Shown piece after piece: positions 21,996-29,711 of a DNA stretch of 32,000 nt (the first letter of the stretch is position 1; the number at the start of each line of letters is the position of its first letter). Below the pieces are notes generated by a model. It saw only the letters and a list, made by a program, of their open reading frames with translations. It was not told where the DNA came from and searched no databases. Both the position numbers and the translations under genes were made by a program. This DNA is from Sinorhizobium meliloti (GTDB lineage: Bacteria > Pseudomonadota > Alphaproteobacteria > Rhizobiales > Rhizobiaceae), in NCBI RefSeq assembly GCF_017876815.1, contig NZ_JAGIOS010000003.1, forward strand, positions 1,200,001 through 1,232,000, read 5' to 3'.

Positions 21996-24197
21996 TTAGC
22001 TGATTTCCGGAAGCTCGTTGATCAGCTTGTCGAGCGTGATGGGATACTGCCGTACCCTTATGGCGGTCGCATTGTAGATAGCGTTCGCGACAGCTGCCGC
22101 GACACCGCAGATCCCGAGCTCGGCGATACCCTTGGCCTTCATCGGCGAGGACATCGGGTCGGTCTCGTTGAGGAAGACGACCTCCTGATGCGGAATGTCG
22201 GCGTGCACTGGCACCTCGTAAGCGGCGAGATCGTGATTGACGAAGAAGCCGCGCTCCTTGTCGACGACGAGCTCCTCCGACAGGGCGCCGCCGACGCCCA
22301 TTGTCATCGCACCGATCACCTGGCTGCGTGCGGTGATCGGATTGAGGATCCGGCCGGCGGCGCAGACCGCCAGCATTCGCCGGATCCGTGTCTCTCCTGT
22401 TGCGACATCGACCGCGACCTCGACGAAATGAGCGCCGAAGGTGGATTGCTGATGGGTCTTGGTGAGGTCACCAAATTCTATCTGGTCCTCCGCCACGAGC
22501 CCCTCATCGCCGGCAGCTTGCGCGAGCGGCATGCGCCGGTCTCCCGACCGGACTTCACCTTCTGCGAAGATCAGGTCGTCGGCGCTGTTGAAACCGAGCT
22601 TCTGCGCCACGGCTTCCCGCAGCTTGGCGCAGGCCGCGTATACGCCGGCGGTGGAGCAGTTTCCTCCGAACTGCCCGCCCGAACCCGAGGAAACAGGGAA
22701 GCGCGAATCTCCCAGGCTTACGGCGACCTTCTCGATCGGGACACCAAGCATTTCGGCCGCCGTCTGGGCGATGATCGTGTAACTGCCCGTGCCGATATCG
22801 GTCATATCGGTCTCGACGGTGACGATGCCCTCGCGGTCGAGCCGGACGCGGGCGCCGGAGTTCAGCACAAGATTGTTGCGGAAGGCCGCGGCCACTCCCA
22901 TGCCGATCAGCCAGTTTCCTTCGCGCCGAGCGCCAGGTTGCTTGCTCCGGTCTCGCCAGCCGAAGCGCTCCGCGCCGGTGCGCAGGCAGCCGACGAGATT
23001 GCGGTGCGAGAAGGGCCGTTCGGGCTTCTCCGGGTCGACCTGGGTGTCGTTGATGATCCGGAATTCGACGGGATCGAGACCCAACCTTTCGGCCATTTCG
23101 TCGATGGCGATCTCCAGCGCCATCATGCCGGGCGCCTCGCCGGGAGCGCGCATCGCGTTTCCTTCTGGAAGATCGAGTGTCGCAAGCCGCATGGCTGTCA
23201 TCCGGTTCTCGCCGGCATAAAGCAGGCGAGTCTGCTGGACGGCCACTTCGGGACCACCGCCCGGAAGGTCCCCGGACCAGCTTTCATGCGCGATCGCCGT
23301 GATCTTGCCGTCGCGCCCTGCACCGATTCTGATCCTCTGGATCGTCGCCGGGCGATGTGTGGTGTTGTTCATCAGGAAGGGGCGGGGGAGGGCGACCTTT
23401 ACGGGGCGCTTTGCTTCACGCGCGGCAAGCGCCGCCAACACCGCATCCGCGCGCAGGAACAGCTTCACCCCGAAGCCTCCACCAATGAACGGCGACATGA
23501 GATGCACCTTGTCCTTGTCGATCCCAAGCGTCGTCGCGAGGTCAGTCCGCCACCAGTCGATCATCTGGCTCGATGTCCAGACCGTCAGGTCGTCGCCGTT
23601 CCACGCGGCGATGGAAGCGTGCGGCTCCATCATGGCATGCGACTGGTCCGGGGTGGTATAGATCTGGTCTAACTTGACGGGGGCTGCTTCGAAGGCGGCA
23701 TCAAAGTCGCCCGCCCCGGAGTCTCCGCCGCCTTCCGGCTCGACAGCGCTGTCCTTCGCCGCGGCCAGATCGAAGGCGCCTTTTTCCTCGGCATAATCGA
23801 CCTTGACGAGCGCGGCGGCGGCGCGGGCCTCCTCGAATGTTTCGGCGACCACGACGGCGATCGCCTGGTGGTAGTGCTGAATTTCGGTGCCGCCGAAGAG
23901 CTTGGCGGTGTTATATTTGCCCTTCTTCAGTTCCCCCACGCCATCGGAGGTGACGACCGCTATCACGCCGGGAGCATTCCTCGCGGCCGCGACATCCATC
24001 GACCTGATCCGGCCCTTGGCGATTGCCGAACCGACGATATAGCCATAGGCATAGCGGGTATTCGGATCATGCCACTCATAGGCATAAATTGCTTTGCCGG
24101 TGGTCTTGAGCGGACCGTCGATGCGGGTGATGGGCTTGCCGATTACCTTGCCCTGATCAATCGGGTTCGTCGTTGCTGGTGTGTCGAATCTCATCAT
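21996..24197 (-). CDS. Xanthine dehydrogenase-family molybdopterin-binding subunit (PaoC/YagR-like)
   Basis: Starts at MMRFDTPATTNPIDQGKVIGKPITRIDGPLKTTGKAIYAYEW, 733 aa, with an AAGGGA RBS. The track ORF (819 aa) runs upstream into the FAD-subunit gene. The start is 1 nt after the FAD-subunit stop. Confidence 0.9.
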   Translation of the reverse strand: MMRFDTPATTNPIDQGKVIGKPITRIDGPLKTTGKAIYAYEWHDPNTRYAYGYIVGSAIAKGRIRSMDVAAARNAPGVIAVVTSDGVGELKKGKYNTAKLFGGTEIQHYHQAIAVVVAETFEEARAAAALVKVDYAEEKGAFDLAAAKDSAVEPEGGGDSGAGDFDAAFEAAPVKLDQIYTTPDQSHAMMEPHASIAAWNGDDLTVWTSSQMIDWWRTDLATTLGIDKDKVHLMSPFIGGGFGVKLFLRADAVLAALAAREAKRPVKVALPRPFLMNNTTHRPATIQRIRIGAGRDGKITAIAHESWSGDLPGGGPEVAVQQTRLLYAGENRMTAMRLATLDLPEGNAMRAPGEAPGMMALEIAIDEMAERLGLDPVEFRIINDTQVDPEKPERPFSHRNLVGCLRTGAERFGWRDRSKQPGARREGNWLIGMGVAAAFRNNLVLNSGARVRLDREGIVTVETDMTDIGTGSYTIIAQTAAEMLGVPIEKVAVSLGDSRFPVSSGSGGQFGGNCSTAGVYAACAKLREAVAQKLGFNSADDLIFAEGEVRSGDRRMPLAQAAGDEGLVAEDQIEFGDLTKTHQQSTFGAHFVEVAVDVATGETRIRRMLAVCAAGRILNPITARSQVIGAMTMGVGGALSEELVVDKERGFFVNHDLAAYEVPVHADIPHQEVVFLNETDPMSSPMKAKGIAELGICGVAAAVANAIYNATAIRVRQYPITLDKLINELPEIS

Positions 24198-24198
24198 C

Positions 24199-25149
24199 TC
24201 ATCCCTTCGCTTCGACAAGAACCGCGCGCAGCGCGCGTTCGACAAGCGTGAGCTTGAAGGCGTTCTGTTCCGTCGGGCGGGCACCGGCAAGAAGCATTGC
24301 GGCCACCGCCTTTGCTCCGTTCGCCAGCTCCTTTTCGGCCGCCTCGTCACGCCATGGTTTCGGCGCGATACCGCCAACGGCGACGCGGCCAGTCCCATCC
24401 GGCTGCACGACGGCGCCGACGGAGACGAGCGCAAAGGCGTAGGAGGCCCGGTCACGAACTTTGCGATAGATCTGCTTGCCGCCAGCCGGCTTCGGCAGGA
24501 CGACCGCGGTGATCAACTCGCCTCGCTCAAGGACATGTTCGATATGCGGCGTGTCACCGGGCAGGCGATGAAGATCTCCCATCGGGATGCTGCGCGTCGT
24601 GCCGTCGGCTCGCACGGTCTCCACGACGGCGTCGAGGGCGCGCATGGCGACCGCCATGTCGCTCGGGTGGCTGGCAATGCAGGCATCGCTGACGCCAACC
24701 ACCGCAAGCTGGCGGCTGAAGCCGGCGAGAGCCGAACAGCCGCTGCCCGGTTGCCTCTTATTGCACGGCTGGTTGGTATCGTAGAAATACGGACAGCGGG
24801 TGCGTTGAAGCAGATTGCCCGCGGTCGTCGCCCTGTTGCGCAACTGTCCCGATGCCCCCGCGAGCAGGGCGCGCGACAGAAGAGCGTAATCACGGCGGAC
24901 CCGTTCGTCGGCGGCAAGATCCGTATTGCGGACCAGGGCGCCGATACGCAGACCCCCTTCCCGCGTAGCTTCGATCCTGTCCAGACCCAGTCCGTTGACA
25001 TCTACGAGATGTGTCGGCGTCTCGATCTCCAGCTTCATCAGATCCAGGAGATTGGTGCCGCCGGCGATGAATTTCGCGCCATCTGTGGCGGCCGCGGCCC
25101 GCGCCGCCGCTTCGATCGACGAGACGCGCTCGTAACTGAAAGCTTTCAT
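24199..25149 (-). CDS. Xanthine dehydrogenase-family FAD-binding subunit (PaoB/YagS-like)
   Basis: [43 protein letters not shown] (CO-dehydrogenase flavoprotein fold). GGGAGGAAGG RBS. ATGA overlap with the FeS-subunit stop at 25146-25149. Confidence 0.88.
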
Positions 25150-25781
25150 GCCTTCCTCCCAGCGACTTCTGTGATGGCTTCGACGATGTTCGAATAGGCG
25201 CCGCAACGACAGATATTGCCGCTCATGCGCTCGCGGATCTCGGCGGGCGTGATTTCGGCCGGCGCCGTGAGATCCACGGTCACATGGCTTGGAATATTGG
25301 CCTTGATTTCATTGAGCATTGCAACGGAGGAACAGATCTGGCCGGGCGTGCAGTAGCCACACTGGAACCCGTCGTGTTTGACAAAGGCGGCCTGCATCGG
25401 ATGGAGGTTCTCCGGCTGCCCCAAGCCTTCGAGCGTGGTGATGCTGTCGCCCTCGTGCATGATGGCGAGCGTCAGGCACGCGTTGACGCGGCGGCCTTCA
25501 ATGAGAACCGTGCACGCTCCGCACTGACCGTGGTCGCACCCCTTCTTGGTACCCGTCAAATGCAGATGCTCGCGCAGCGCGTCGAGAAGCGTCGTTCGGT
25601 TATCGAGCTGAAGCTCCCGGCGTTCGTCGTTCACCGTGAATGTGACCTTCGTGCTCTGGGGTGCGGTGGAGGCATTGGTCTGCGCGTGACCGAGCGAGTG
25701 TGCGCTCACCACTGTCACGGTAGCGGCCGAGGCGGCGAGCAGGTCGCGCCGCGAGATTTCAAGTGCGCCAGGACTTTGCAT
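25146..25781 (-). CDS. (2Fe-2S)-binding subunit with twin-arginine signal (PaoA/YagT-like)
   Basis: [33 protein letters not shown] signal, then [11 protein letters not shown] and CGYCTPGQ / CRCGAY cluster motifs. The ATG at 25781 has GGAG 6 nt upstream; an alternative ATG lies at 25793. Confidence 0.88.
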
Positions 25782-26094
25782 ATCCAACTCCATGTCTTGA
25801 TGACGAAAGGTCTAAAGCGCGTCGCATCCCTAGGATTTATACGCCGCGCTTTAGGTCTTGTTGTGCATGCCGTAGTCGCAAAAACCGCTGCACACCTCTG
25901 GCGACATGCATTGGGACCAAGCGGCCGTGAGCCGCGAACGCGCAACAACCAAGCCCGAGAAATGATCCGGCAGGCGCGTTCACAAGTGAGTTAGGGCGGG
26001 TAGCGCGTGTGACTACCGTCCCGATCCCGATAAGGCCTATGAACGGAGTTCATGAATGGCGGCATTGAAGCAGGCGCCTTCCTAGAAGACGCGA

Positions 26095-26134
26095 CTTGAC
26101 GAAATGGGCATCATGTAACATAGGTTGTTACATG
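26095..26134 (+). promoter_or_regulatory. CTTGAC -35 plus 9-bp-arm palindrome CATGTAACA-N5-TGTTACATG overlapping the methyltransferase start codon
   Basis: CTTGAC at 26095-26100. Perfect inverted repeat at 26112-26120 / 26126-26134. The right arm ends in the ATG (26132-26134). Confidence 0.4.
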
Positions 26135-26833
26135 AGTGAGAGTGACCGCAGAATGAGATTTCCCAGCGTCAATGGTCCAGCTTTTACCGCGGCGCATGCC
26201 AGTTCGTACGTCGAAGGGACGTCGAGGAAAGTACCTGGGTTGGCCGCTCTCCATCGCATGACGTCGATGTTGGTCGCGGAACGTGCGCCGGTGCAAGCGC
26301 GAGTTTTGGTGCTCGGCGCCGGCGGCGGTATGGAGCTCAAAGCTCTCGCCGACGAGAATTCAGATTGGAGTTTTTGCGGCATTGACCCGTCGGCGGACAT
26401 GCTTCGTGTCGCAGAACAGACGGTGGGACCCCATTTGCCGCGTGTCCATCTGCAGCAGGGCTACATAGGCGCCGCACCGGAGGGGCCGTTCGACGCGGCT
26501 GTCTGCCTGCTCACGCTCCACTTTGTTGGTCGCGCTCAACGTCTCGACACACTCGAACAGATTCGTCGCCGTTTGGTGCCGGGCGCTCCGTTCGTCGTCG
26601 CGCACATTAGTTTCCCGCAATCGGAACCCGAGCGCTCGACCTGGATCGCCCGTCACGTCGCGTTCGGCGGAACAGCCTCCGGCGAAGCTGAAAGTGCAAG
26701 ACAGGCGATCGCCACGAAGTTATCGGTTCTCTCGCCAGAGGAGGACGAGGCGGTGCTTCGCAAGGCGGGCTTCTCGGATGTTCGCTTGTTCTATGCGGCT
26801 ATGACCTTCAGGGGCTGGGTGGGATACGCCTGA
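26132..26833 (+). CDS. Class I SAM-dependent methyltransferase
   Basis: Motif I VLVLGAGGGMEL, then CGIDPSADML and FDAAVCLLTLHF. The track ORF starts at TTG 26096; ATG 26132 is the first ATG in frame. Confidence 0.8.
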   Translation: MSESDRRMRFPSVNGPAFTAAHASSYVEGTSRKVPGLAALHRMTSMLVAERAPVQARVLVLGAGGGMELKALADENSDWSFCGIDPSADMLRVAEQTVGPHLPRVHLQQGYIGAAPEGPFDAAVCLLTLHFVGRAQRLDTLEQIRRRLVPGAPFVVAHISFPQSEPERSTWIARHVAFGGTASGEAESARQAIATKLSVLSPEEDEAVLRKAGFSDVRLFYAAMTFRGWVGYA

Positions 26834-26854
26834 ATTCTCAACATCCTGCAGTGC

Positions 26855-27184
26855 TCATGGTTTCCCCGTCCGGCGCCCGCGAGAGAAGATCATACCGGCG
26901 TGATGCAGAACGCCGTCGATAAAATCTCCATCCGCGGTAAAGCCGGTATCGTCCCAATAATCGATATGCGTGCCCATCACTTGGTAGCGTCCCTCATAGG
27001 CGCGCTCACGCGTACCGCGGGCCTCGATATAGCGACCATTCGGCAGGAGCTCATGGCGGATGTAACTGTCTTCTGTGACCCAAAGGCCGACATAGGGGTG
27101 ATTGGCCTGCATTTCGGCTTCCTCGGCTTTTACGGATTGGCATAGGAGTGCGGCGGTCATCAAGGTCGCAAAGGTACGCTGCAC
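26855..27184 (-). CDS. Atu4866-domain protein with signal peptide
   Basis: HPYVGLWVTEDSYIRHELLPNGRYIEARG...YWDDTGFTADGDFIDGVLHHAGMIF matches the Atu4866 family as I recall it. GTG start at 27184 has GAGGAG 6 nt upstream, giving the signal VQRTFATLMTAALLCQSVKA. Confidence 0.7.
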   Translation of the reverse strand: MQRTFATLMTAALLCQSVKAEEAEMQANHPYVGLWVTEDSYIRHELLPNGRYIEARGTRERAYEGRYQVMGTHIDYWDDTGFTADGDFIDGVLHHAGMIFSRGRRTGKP

Positions 27185-27273
27185 GGCGATCTCCTCGTGA
27201 TCGGTGATTGCGGGATTATGCTGCGGCTGCGCAGGGCCGAAACAGACATTTCGGTTCCGGCCCCGACCAGCGG

Positions 27274-27804
27274 TCATTGGGAACGCGGCTCGTTGTTGTC
27301 GACAACCGCGTGATAGGCGGCGAGATCGAGAAAAGCTTCGGCCTCGACCACCGCTCCGTTCTTCATCAGGAATATCCAGACGAACTTATTTCTGTAAGGC
27401 GCTCCCGAAGTCGTGGTTGCCGATCCGTCGAACCGGACGATGACCGTGTCTCCATCGGCCCAGATATGATGCACCCTTGGCACCAGAGGGGTTGCGAGAC
27501 GGCTGATCAGGGGAGCCGAGGCCCGCTCGACGAAATCCTCGACGCCACGGTAAGTGCCGGCCACGGGAGCGGAACCGTGGATTGTCCAGACGACATCTGG
27601 CGCGAGAAGCTCTGCAAAGATGTTGCCGTCTGCTCGCCACTTATCGAATGCCGCGCGCACGGTGGTTATATTCTGCGCCTCGATATCGGCCGTTGGCGCG
27701 ATGGTATCGGCATGCGCCGGTCCCATGCTGGCCCCAACCGCCGAGGCGATCAGCAGCTTGCGGCCGCCGCCGGCGAGGCGATCTGTCATTAAGGAAAAGA
27801 TCAT
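27274..27804 (-). CDS. NTF2/SnoaL-like fold protein with signal peptide
   Basis: MIFSLMTDRLAGGGRKLLIASAVGASMGPAHA signal, then an approximately 140-aa alpha+beta domain (NITTVRAAFDKWRADGNIFAELLAPDVVWTIHG...WADGDTVIVRFDG...FLMKNGAVVEAEAFLD). Confidence 0.65.
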   Translation of the reverse strand: MIFSLMTDRLAGGGRKLLIASAVGASMGPAHADTIAPTADIEAQNITTVRAAFDKWRADGNIFAELLAPDVVWTIHGSAPVAGTYRGVEDFVERASAPLISRLATPLVPRVHHIWADGDTVIVRFDGSATTTSGAPYRNKFVWIFLMKNGAVVEAEAFLDLAAYHAVVDNNEPRSQ

Positions 27805-27860
27805 GGAATATTCCTTTCGTCGGGACGCGGGAAAAAGCCCCGAGATCGGTTCGCGCCGGG

Positions 27861-28583
27861 TCAATTGCCCGATGCGGTCGGTCTGATCGTGATCTCGGTG
27901 GTGTCCACGCTCTGCGGGGCCTCGATCACCTGCCGGACCGCACGGGCGATGTCGGCAGGCTGAAGCGCGATGGCGCGATAGGTGTCCATCGCCGCCATGG
28001 TCTCCTCGTGGGTGATGGTTCCAGCAAGTTCGCTTTCGACGACGCCGGGATTGACGCAGGTGACGCGGATATTGGTACTCTCCTGGCGCAGTCCGTCAGA
28101 GATCGCGCGGACTGCGAACTTCGTTGCGCAATATACCGCGGCTGTGGGTACGACCGACAGCGCTCCGATCGAGCCGATATTGATGATCTGCCCGCTACGC
28201 TGTGCCTCCATGATTGGCAATACGGCCCCGATGCCCCAAAGCACGCCCTTGATGTTCACGTCGATCATGCGCTCCCACTCGTCCACCTTAACTGCGGCAA
28301 GCGGCGAGAGCGGCATGACGCCGGCATTGTTCACCAGGACGTCGATGCGTCCCCAAGTGTCGACCGCGGCCTGCGCAAAGGCTGCCATGGAGTGACGGTC
28401 GGTCACGTCCAGCACCTGCGCCAGGGCGGTACCTCCTGCGTCTCGAATCTCCGTGGCAATGGCCTCGATACGGGCCTGGCGGCGTGCACCCAACAATATT
28501 TTCCCACCGGCGGCGCCAAGCTCTCGAGCGATGCCCTCGCCGATGCCGCTGGAGGCGCCAGTGATCAGAATGACCTTGTCCAT
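27861..28583 (-). CDS. Short-chain dehydrogenase/reductase (SDR)
   Basis: MDKVILITGASSGIGEGIA (TGxxxGxG), NNAG, and catalytic Y-x3-K (YCATKFAV). GGAG RBS. 240 aa. Confidence 0.9.
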   Translation of the reverse strand: MDKVILITGASSGIGEGIARELGAAGGKILLGARRQARIEAIATEIRDAGGTALAQVLDVTDRHSMAAFAQAAVDTWGRIDVLVNNAGVMPLSPLAAVKVDEWERMIDVNIKGVLWGIGAVLPIMEAQRSGQIINIGSIGALSVVPTAAVYCATKFAVRAISDGLRQESTNIRVTCVNPGVVESELAGTITHEETMAAMDTYRAIALQPADIARAVRQVIEAPQSVDTTEITIRPTASGN

Positions 28584-28682
28584 GGTGTACTCCGTCCTTT
28601 GAGTTGCACGGAGAAGATGGACTTTGATGACTGTCGCGGGTACCCATCGCTCACTGAACTCAATGGTTAGCAGCACTCTACA

Positions 28683-29565
28683 ATGTTAGACATGAACCTT
28701 CTGCCGCTCTTCCTGGCTGTCGCCGAGGAGGACAACTTCCGTGCTGCCGCCGATCGCCTCGGTGTGACCCGCTCGGCTGTCAGCCAAGGAATGCGGCGGC
28801 TCGAAGATGCCTTTGGTACGACGCTCGTCACCCGCACGACGCGTTCAGTTCGCCTGACCGAAGCGGGGGAGCGTCTGCGCGAGGCTCTGTCGCAGCCCTT
28901 GTCGGATATTGCGACGGCGCTTCGATCGGGTAGCGGGTGATGAACCCCGCGGTCTCTTGCGGATCGGCGTCACCTCGATCGCCGAGCAATTCCTTTCCGG
29001 TCCGCTCATCGCTTCCTTTGCTCAGGCCCATCCCAAGGTGACGATAGACGTCACCGTCACGGACGAGGAGTTCGATATCGTGGCCGCTGGTTTCGACGCG
29101 GGCGTCAGGCTTGGCGAGGTGATCGAGCAGGACATGATCGCGGTGCCGCTGACGGGCGATCAGCGCGAGCTGGCCGTTGCTGCCCCCGCCTATATCGCAG
29201 TCCACGGCACGCCGGCGCACCCGCGTGAGCTGGTCCATCATCGCTGCATAGGCTGGCGGCGAGCGCCGAATGTCGCGCCCTACAGGTGGGAATTCGAGGA
29301 GAATGGTGTTCCCTTCGACGTGGCGGTCGAGCCCCAGATTACCACCAATGACCTGCGCTTCATGCTCCGCTCAGCCCTCTGCGGGGCCGGGATCACCTTT
29401 GCAACGGAAGAAACGTTCCGCCCGTTCGTAGAAACCGGTGAACTCGTCCCGCTGCTGCAGGATTTCCTGCCCCCATTCCCCGGTTTCTTTCTTTATTTCC
29501 CTCACCGCCGCAACATGGCGCCAAAGATGCGAGCTTTGATCGAGCATATACGGCGGTGGCGATAA
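28683..29565 (+). pseudogene. LysR-family transcriptional regulator with a single frameshift
   Basis: The HTH part (NLLPLFLAVAEEDNFRAAADRLGVTRSAVSQGMRRLEDAFGTTLVTRTTRSVRLTEAGERL...SDIATAL) stops at 28938-28940. The rest (DRVAGDEPRGLLRIGVT...FLYFPHRRNMAPKMRALIEHIRRWR) continues in the +1 frame. The junction is at about 28918-28925. Divergent from the SDR gene. Confidence 0.8.
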
Positions 29566-29615
29566 CCGGCGCTTCCGGCGCAGCGTCGAGAAGGTCCCAC
29601 GCTCGCCCGAATTCC

Positions 29616-29630
29616 TTATCTTTTCTTTAT
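29616..29630 (+). promoter_or_regulatory. T-rich direct repeat (TTAT-N7-TTAT, 11-bp period) upstream of kdp, candidate KdpE-type site
   Basis: ttatcttttctttat lies about 80 nt upstream of the first kdp-associated ORF. OmpR-family regulators bind direct repeats about one helical turn apart. No kdpDE is visible in the window. Confidence 0.25.
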
Positions 29631-29711
29631 GTGGTCGCCAAACCATCCCAATCGATAATTGACGCGGCGCGGGCGCATCATCCGGATCTTGGATCAATCT
29701 GGAGAGTGCCC

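Follow-up and report, generated by a model that had tools for sequence, protein, structure and literature searches.

The subject of this analysis is a group of three genes in a 32,000-nt stretch of Sinorhizobium meliloti DNA (contig NZ_JAGIOS010000003.1, positions 1,200,001 to 1,232,000), referred to here as the window. The genes form three consecutive minus-strand open reading frames (ORFs) encoding a short-chain dehydrogenase/reductase (SDR), a SnoaL_2/NTF2-like protein (hereafter SnoaL) and an Atu4866-domain protein, with a LysR-family gene divergent from them (Table 1). Window positions 26000-29700 are 100% identical to plasmid pSymA of S. meliloti SM11 (NC_017327.1, 34642-38342). The original prediction, made from the sequence alone, described an uncharacterised module of a cytoplasmic SDR and two signal-peptide proteins under a LysR regulator. 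The ORF list and the Pfam matches place all three genes, with the domain families proposed for them, at the predicted coordinates on the minus strand, and no described function for the module was found in the literature.

Table 1. Genes, predicted signal peptides and putative regulatory site at the module locus, in window coordinates
Feature	Position	Strand	Basis
SDR gene, 240 aa	27861..28583	-	Pfam adh_short 2.3e-56; predicted cytoplasmic, NADP(H)-preferring
SnoaL_2/NTF2-like gene, 176 aa	27274..27804	-	Pfam SnoaL_2 5.6e-12, 46.6 bits vs cutoff 27
Atu4866-domain gene, 109 aa, GTG start	26855..27184	-	Pfam PF11512 2e-38, 131.1 bits vs cutoff 25, all 75 profile positions
Divergent LysR-family regulator, pseudogene in window	28683..29565	+	HTH_1 and LysR_substrate in separate frames; +1 frameshift
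Putative LysR recognition site, degenerate inverted repeat	28664..28682	.	Aligned intergenic regions; adjoins LysR start codon
Predicted SnoaL signal peptide, 32 aa, ending AHA/DT	27709-27804	-	Sequence features and homologue conservation
Predicted Atu4866 signal peptide, 20 aa, ending VKA/EE	27125-27184	-	Sequence features and homologue conservation

One genome per species was scanned for Atu4866 relatives, which yielded more than 595 loci, of which the 80 most similar were retrieved, and the window proteins and the gap proteins were mapped onto them. Co-occurrence beyond close relatives had been set beforehand as the test of the module, and the exact arrangement, LysR divergent from SDR-SnoaL-Atu4866, recurs in 13 of the 80 loci, found in Rhizobium, Mesorhizobium, Devosia, Aureimonas, Pelagibius, Skermanella, Paracoccus, a Rhodospirillales metagenome-assembled genome and Stappiaceae, many genera in several orders. 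While the trio does recur, it is better described as one configuration of a mix-and-match set. The same divergent LysR layout was found with an aldo/keto reductase (AKR) in AKR-SnoaL-Atu4866 (17 loci) and AKR-Atu4866 (3 loci), and also with SDR-Atu4866 (at least 10 loci), SnoaL-Atu4866 (5 loci) and, in Azospirillum, SDR-CMD-Atu4866 (5 loci); about 10 loci encode an additional exported NTF2-like protein. By estimate from the architecture tally, most of the 80 loci have an orthologous LysR gene upstream in divergent orientation. Orthologues of the SDR (55-94% identity) and of SnoaL are each present in about 41. The AKR (PF00248, 3.4e-75) occupies the SDR position in 22 of the 80, next to the same kind of putative operator. 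The exported partner varies as well, being SnoaL_2, a second NTF2-like protein or a CMD-family protein, and SnoaL is optional.

Independent gene calls with Pfam searches recovered the four-gene unit in Paracoccus alkanivorans, Aureimonas altamirensis and a JGI metagenome contig, each with unrelated flanks. A search from the SnoaL side agreed, and included one Afipia locus with LysR-SDR-SnoaL but no Atu4866 gene. Identities to the window proteins are, for example, 86% (Pelagibius) and 82% (Paracoccus) for the SDR and about 80% for LysR. Because identities are this high across orders while the flanks vary, the comparison suggests that the module has spread horizontally. In many AKR-type loci (L014, L025, L026, L034-L038 and others), further LysR-SDR divergent pairs lie approximately 400-4000 bp downstream of Atu4866. 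These are about 37% (LysR) and 29% (SDR) identical to the window proteins, and the loci look like islands of several LysR-controlled redox modules.

In the window, the SDR and LysR starts are 99 bp apart (28584-28682). When this region was aligned across 41 loci (19 SDR-type, 22 AKR-type), a conserved inverted repeat was seen adjoining the LysR start, of the form GGTTAG-N5-CTAACC or TGGTAA-N7-TTACCA; the first form reads CATTG-GTyyAG-N5-CTAACCA in its longer consensus. The repeat is a candidate for the T-N11-A type of site bound by LysR regulators. The repeat is a perfect palindrome in L013 and L033; the window copy, a putative site, has a degenerate left half. As the repeat is conserved in both types of locus, the same type of regulator and putative operator lies upstream of either reductase family.

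The LysR gene predicted beside the operon is present and divergent but is a frameshifted pseudogene in the window. Its HTH_1 domain is encoded by an 85-aa ORF (28683-28940) and its LysR_substrate domain lies in another frame (28909-29565), with an extra T at 28921-28922 in alignment with strains ml21 and R28. The same allele is found in S. meliloti ml46 and RCAM1750, so the frameshift is not a sequencing error. A single intact protein (293-294 aa) is encoded in ml21, Rm41, 2011 and USDA 6670, and an intact LysR coding sequence is annotated in R28 by the Prokaryotic Genome Annotation Pipeline (PGAP); regulators carrying HTH_1 and LysR_substrate in one protein are found in other strains and genera, though not in the window. 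NCBIfam gave only sub-threshold matches for LysR.

Gene fusions connect the Atu4866 domain to both of its partner families. A search of 1.84 billion cluster representatives returned 450 Atu4866-domain proteins, among them P0268 (323 aa), in which a signal-less Atu4866 domain directly precedes an SDR sharing 58% identity with that of the window. The 90% cluster of P0268 has 104 members from Curtobacterium and Frigoribacterium genomes, complete ones included, and its gene adjoins a divergent MmyB-like XRE regulator. In Bordetella spp., P0251 and P0405 (251 aa) carry a lipoprotein-type signal, a SnoaL_2 domain 44% identical to that of the window and then Atu4866, encoded next to a divergent AraC regulator. 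P0275 is a similar exported fusion, Bacteroidetes-like fusions also have lipoprotein-type signals, and P0288 is a SnoaL::Atu4866 fusion without a signal. These fusions show that all three families are functionally tied and, going by the predicted signals, that the Atu4866 domain should be able to work in either compartment. We conclude firmly that the genes belong to a conserved, probably mobile functional module. Its members are a ligand-type regulator, a cytoplasmic carbonyl reductase of the NAD(P)H type that can come from either of two families, and one or two small proteins, usually exported.

Start codons were chosen by the position of ribosome-binding sites (RBSs), by homologue N-termini kept from the same starts and by the lack of conservation in upstream extensions. 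The SDR starts at ATG 28583 behind the RBS AAGGACGGAG, SnoaL at ATG 27804 with AAGGAA 6 nt before the ATG, and the Atu4866 protein at GTG 27184 with GAGGAG 6 nt before the GTG; gaps of 56 nt (SDR/SnoaL) and 89 nt (SnoaL/Atu4866) separate the genes. Longer forms of the SDR (271 aa), SnoaL (196 aa) and the Atu4866 protein (140 aa) were rejected, as other genera do not conserve their extensions and good RBSs precede the shorter starts. Public S. meliloti records annotate the Atu4866 start variously, giving proteins of 101, 109, 140 or 153 aa. Family conservation and the GAGGAG site favour the 109-aa GTG form, and the 101-aa PGAP form cuts into the predicted signal peptide. A terminator scan found none on the operon strand, a sigma-70 consensus scan found no promoter, and PADLOC defence-protein models matched none of the SDR, SnoaL and Atu4866 proteins. 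SMa2337/2339/2341, considered as S. meliloti 1021 locus tags for the module, were rejected because they belong to the rhizobactin cluster.

The reductase is a classical SDR, with a TGxxxGxG cofactor motif (TGASSGIG at residue 8), GARR at 32, NNAG at 85 and the catalytic Ser-Tyr-Lys (S138, Y151-x3-K155). As the original prediction held, it has no signal peptide, since the Rossmann motif begins at residue 8 and leaves no space for one. It is approximately 98% identical to PDB 3TFO (1e-146, 240 aligned residues, few substitutions), which we take to be a Sinorhizobium meliloti structural-genomics entry. The deposited name of 3TFO is 'putative 3-oxoacyl-(acyl-carrier-protein) reductase', but a FabG identity is not supported by scores that stay below the cutoffs, at 136.1 vs 297.75 bits for TIGR01830 and 146.5 vs 222 for PRK12826. 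None of the 25 best-scoring NCBIfam models (of 223 matches) reaches its cutoff for the SDR, and the gene context is unrelated to fatty-acid synthesis. The nearest characterised relatives are clavaldehyde dehydrogenase 2JAH (2.7e-46) and 3P19 (1.1e-44). The window SDR has the NADP-type Arg-Arg after strand 2 and the S-Y-K residues in common with the 2JAH/YdfG/'blue fluorescent protein' clade; however, the similarity is only moderate, the substrates of that clade are unrelated to any known here, and its enzymes have no exported partners.

The N-terminus of SnoaL, MIFSLMTDRLAGGGRKLLIASAVGASMGPAHA followed by DT, has the layout of a signal peptide (RK...LLIASAVGASMGP-AHA/D), with a basic n-region, a hydrophobic h-region and small residues at -3 and -1. 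A hydrophobic N-terminal segment is present in 117 of 120 SnoaL homologues, in which the signal and linker vary in sequence and length and the mature domain is nearly invariant. The n-region is long (~16 aa), with RR in some homologues though not in most, so that the predicted signal could direct export by Sec or, as remains conceivable, by the twin-arginine translocation (Tat) route. In the AlphaFold model, the predicted local distance difference test score (pLDDT) exceeds 90 at residues 40-160 and falls below 50 at residues 1-34, which are disordered; helices are followed by a curved sheet, the alpha+beta cone fold of the NTF2-like superfamily. Foldseek returned 338 PDB matches at E<=0.001 for this model, and all of the 50 matches listed have the NTF2 fold. 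Uncharacterised NTF2-fold proteins come first, followed by TerC, LEH-type epoxide hydrolases and polyketide cyclases, with IdmH and ChaU also among the neighbours. TerC matches by structure at E 2e-8 and weakly by sequence at 0.02. Y85, R102, R124, Y137, N139, E156, D160 and Y164 are invariant among the homologues. NCBIfam has no specific family for either SnoaL or the Atu4866 protein.

The Atu4866 protein begins with MQRTFATLMTAALLCQSVKA followed by EE, and its signal features read MQR-TFATLMTAALLC-QSVKA/E. The best 120 homologues are mostly 103 aa long, with the N-terminal pattern MQRxFAxLIxAxLLxQPxxA/EE; individual residues in this segment vary, but its length, charge and hydrophobic character are retained, and identity over the mature 75 residues is 65-80%. 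A lipoprotein reading of the window protein (ALLC) was rejected, because other S. meliloti strains have Ser in place of the Cys and the residue at -1 is unsuitable. PDB 2JMB, the Atu4866 protein of Agrobacterium tumefaciens, matches the window protein at 6.1e-34. The AlphaFold model has eight strands with a core pLDDT above 90 and forms an eight-stranded antiparallel beta-barrel, which Foldseek aligns to 2JMB with E 4.3e-9, a template-modelling (TM) score of 0.84 and a root-mean-square deviation of 2.0. Other matches are weak (E ~0.01-0.5) and consist of lipocalin-like barrels: YedD, potempin E, fatty-acid-binding proteins and NlpE. A conserved metal site in the barrel was rejected because the His residues are lost in distant members. 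The A. tumefaciens protein shares the PF11512 domain (~70% identity over 75 residues) and, like the window protein, has no assigned function; it differs in being 79 aa long and signal-less, whereas the window protein and most alphaproteobacterial homologues have a signal-like extension of ~20-27 aa. We found no functional study of Atu4866, PF11512 or 2JMB in the literature, nor one of the candidate S. meliloti 1021 locus tags SMa2337-2359. The family was correctly described as having a solved fold and no assigned function, to which the solved structure of the SDR can be added.

Support for the signal peptides came from sequence features together with the family-wide conservation of their character. 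The predicted AHA and VKA ends agree with the sequence, and the n-h-c features are kept in 117/120 SnoaL homologues and, for Atu4866, in 70 of the 76 genomic loci that could be evaluated. Because the N-termini drift in sequence while length, charge and hydrophobicity are kept, which is the usual signature of cleavable export signals, we predict that both segments are of this kind. A lack of support for the signal peptides had been set beforehand as a second ground for refutation, and the homologue comparison did not bear it out. For the Atu4866 family as a whole, export holds as a prediction for the window protein and most homologues but not for 2JMB, five alphaproteobacterial loci and the Curtobacterium fusion, all of which are signal-less. 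Loci L063, L062, L065, L068 and L070 have the order LysR-(exported NTF2-like)-Atu4866 with a signal-less Atu4866 protein, a predicted cytoplasmic barrel beside an exported partner. In L063, the signal-less Atu4866 gene overlaps the upstream stop codon by ATGA.

Presence of the SnoaL gene varies among Sinorhizobium strains through two distinct deletions. In R28 (L082), the deletion leaves Atu4866 with its own RBS and signal. In Ensifer sp. USDA 6670 (L001) and P0008, it has produced an in-frame hybrid signal, MIFSLLTDRLAGGGRKLLIAS-TLMTAALLSQSVKA, derived from both signal peptides.

The surroundings of the module on pSymA contain genes of detoxification type. A PaoABC-type molybdenum aldehyde oxidoreductase of three subunits is encoded at 21996-25793 on the minus strand; its iron-sulfur subunit has a twin-arginine signal, so the enzyme is predicted to be periplasmic, and its adjacency to the module is apparently Sinorhizobium-specific. 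Window positions 1-21000, with annotation taken from the collinear strain ml21, encode a quinone oxidoreductase, a TetR regulator, an aldehyde dehydrogenase, LysR and katG, and a major facilitator superfamily (MFS) efflux pump, as well as an ISRm17 transposase, a cupin, an amidohydrolase/amidase/ABC transporter cluster and an adenylate cyclase, much of which is stress- or detoxification-like. On the other side, kdpF/kdpA begin at ~29806, and the LysR gene abuts kdpFA in SM11-type plasmids. In 2011, BL225C, GR4 and others, the match ends at window position 29572 and resumes elsewhere in the record, a pattern that points to a gain or loss of DNA (insertion or deletion) at the junction. A rhizobactin region of 15.4 kb (SMa2337-SMa2341) has been reported as variable between strains (PMC4468178). 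A class I S-adenosylmethionine-dependent methyltransferase gene (26096-26833, plus strand) is convergent with Atu4866, with 21 nt between the stop codons, and stands next to the module only in Sinorhizobium/Ensifer (L001). In a genome-wide association study (GWAS), variants within or adjacent to the Atu4866 and methyltransferase genes were associated with lower S. meliloti fitness, only in the defence-overactive nad1 host (PMC12904279).

Our preferred reading, held tentatively, is that the module may be an inducible two-compartment system handling a carbonyl-, quinone- or aromatic-type small molecule. A divergent ligand-sensing regulator (LysR-type, and frameshifted in SM11) would turn the operon on. 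The target would be a membrane-permeant, reactive or hydrophobic carbonyl, quinone or aromatic compound, plausibly a plant or microbial defence metabolite. The exported NTF2-fold and Atu4866 barrel proteins, perhaps in physical contact, would bind or convert the compound in the periplasm, and the SDR, as an NADPH-dependent carbonyl reductase, would then remove the carbonyl group in the cytoplasm, with its supply of NADPH. The NTF2 fold is typical of isomerases, dehydratases, epoxide hydrolases and cyclases, and a lipocalin-like fold such as the 75-residue Atu4866 barrel is typical of the binding of small ligands or partners.

Several observations are in favour of such a system. The chemistry of the cytoplasmic partner appears to be kept despite the family swap, with an AKR replacing the SDR at the same position in 22 loci. 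The GARR motif is of the NADP type and the nearest characterised relative, 2JAH, is an NADPH-dependent aldehyde reductase. The modelled fold of SnoaL places it near TerC, LEH-type epoxide hydrolases and polyketide cyclases, and the fusion genes, too, adjoin divergent regulators of ligand type (MmyB-like, AraC). The detoxification-type neighbours on pSymA (the Tat-signal PaoABC-type enzyme, aldehyde dehydrogenase, quinone oxidoreductase, KatG and MFS pump) and the GWAS signal from the nad1 host at the Atu4866 and methyltransferase genes (PMC12904279) are circumstantial support.

Other observations weigh against it. The Curtobacterium fusion and the signal-less homologues put the barrel in the cytoplasm, so its role is not strictly periplasmic; with signal-less barrels in this fusion, in five loci and in 2JMB, the data do not require a sequential pathway from periplasm to cytoplasm. 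Each of the three genes is absent somewhere, and some S. meliloti strains have lost SnoaL by deletion; the three proteins may therefore function independently of one another. With its regulator broken, the module may be silent or decaying in the window strain. The detoxification-type neighbours are Sinorhizobium-specific, the flanks being different in other genera. The GWAS association is a correlation and could come from linked genes. A more specific version of the two-compartment reading must be called unlikely: an undescribed detoxification system in which the exported pair of binder and enzyme would convert a quinone- or aldehyde-type toxin of a host or competitor and an interchangeable SDR or AKR would finish the task, with horizontal spread among plant and soil bacteria and an effect on rhizobial survival under nodule defence.

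The main rival, which we judge rather unlikely, is a co-regulated stress regulon, in which an electrophile- or oxidant-sensing regulator would bring about envelope protection or repair by the exported proteins and cytoplasmic detoxification by the reductase, with no common substrate. The E. coli rclABC operon works broadly in this way. Single components of the module can be lost or exchanged while the others remain, the exported partners belong to unrelated families (SnoaL_2, SnoaL_3-like and CMD) and the barrel resembles, weakly, lipoproteins of the envelope (YedD, potempin, NlpE), all of which would suit a regulon of this kind; it is harder to reconcile with the fusions, which join the barrel covalently to an SDR and to SnoaL and argue for joint action on one target, and with mature domains that are 65-80% identical across orders, as would fit a specific ligand or partner. 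If, instead, the N-terminal segments were not export signals, or were inefficient ones, the module would be fully cytoplasmic and the barrel and NTF2 protein would be accessory subunits of the reductase. This seems improbable given the n-h-c layout, with small -3/-1 and then acidic residues, that the 70/76 Atu4866 and 117/120 SnoaL homologues maintain despite free sequence variation. The Bordetella and Bacteroidetes-like fusions with lipoprotein-type signals also speak for export, as does the in-frame deletion in Ensifer USDA 6670, which kept a hybrid signal peptide, while the signal-less Atu4866::SDR fusion, the signal-less Atu4866 homologues and the signal-less SnoaL::Atu4866 fusion P0288 would agree with cytoplasmic action, export itself being only predicted.

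The pairing of an SDR with an NTF2-fold enzyme is typical of natural-product pathways, and enzymes of this kind, such as TerC, IdmH and ChaU, are among the nearest structural matches of the SnoaL model. It is thus conceivable, if quite improbable, that the genes are a small biosynthetic or tailoring cassette for a diffusible metabolite or signal, aromatic or polyketide-like in kind, which an SDR ketoreductase would build or alter together with a cyclase or dehydratase of the SnoaL type and which the barrel would carry. Such a cassette would have its enzymes divided across the membrane and its reductase family freely exchanged, neither a synthase nor any other core gene of biosynthesis is conserved near the module in the loci examined, and an operon beside a divergent ligand-sensing regulator has the look of catabolism or defence. 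Accidental adjacency of unrelated genes on a variable plasmid is barely credible: pSymA is a mosaic on which the flanks and the presence of SnoaL vary between strains and the regulator is decaying in some, but the arrangement repeats across orders with a conserved putative operator, and there are two independent gene fusions.

Mixed-compartment operons beside a divergent regulator have precedents in RclR-rclABC of E. coli and in the Lin pathway of Sphingobium, which has the periplasmic NTF2-fold LinA, the SDR LinC and the LysR-type LinR. Like the module, these systems place a cytoplasmic oxidoreductase and small periplasmic proteins under one ligand- or stress-sensing regulator; unlike it, they have no counterpart of the Atu4866 barrel, and they are related to it only at the superfamily level. 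By analogy with such mixed-compartment detoxification operons, the layout of the module would be unusual but not unprecedented. A chemical parallel may be found in terfestatin biosynthesis, in which TerC, an NTF2-fold dehydratase, works with the SDR reductase TerB on a quinone. TerB and TerC resemble the module in being an SDR and NTF2-fold enzyme pair, and TerC ranks high among the structural matches of the SnoaL model; both Ter enzymes, however, are cytoplasmic and part of a biosynthetic cluster, whereas the NTF2 protein of the module has a predicted signal and there is no synthase nearby.

The family of each protein, the solved structures for two of them and the ordinary layout of an operon with a divergent regulator were already known. 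The recurrent partnership of an Atu4866 barrel, an NTF2-fold protein and an NADPH reductase, its predicted split localisation and any function for it are undescribed. The structure of Atu4866 (PF11512) has been solved since 2007, and the SDR has a solved structure too (3TFO), neither with a function; the domain now becomes part of a testable module, for which LysR frameshift alleles and SnoaL deletions provide natural knock-outs within one species. If plant defence compounds are indeed handled by the module, it would bear on rhizobial fitness in nodules, where the GWAS points to the locus; if they are not, it would still be a clean case of non-orthologous replacement, of an SDR by an AKR, beside one putative operator.

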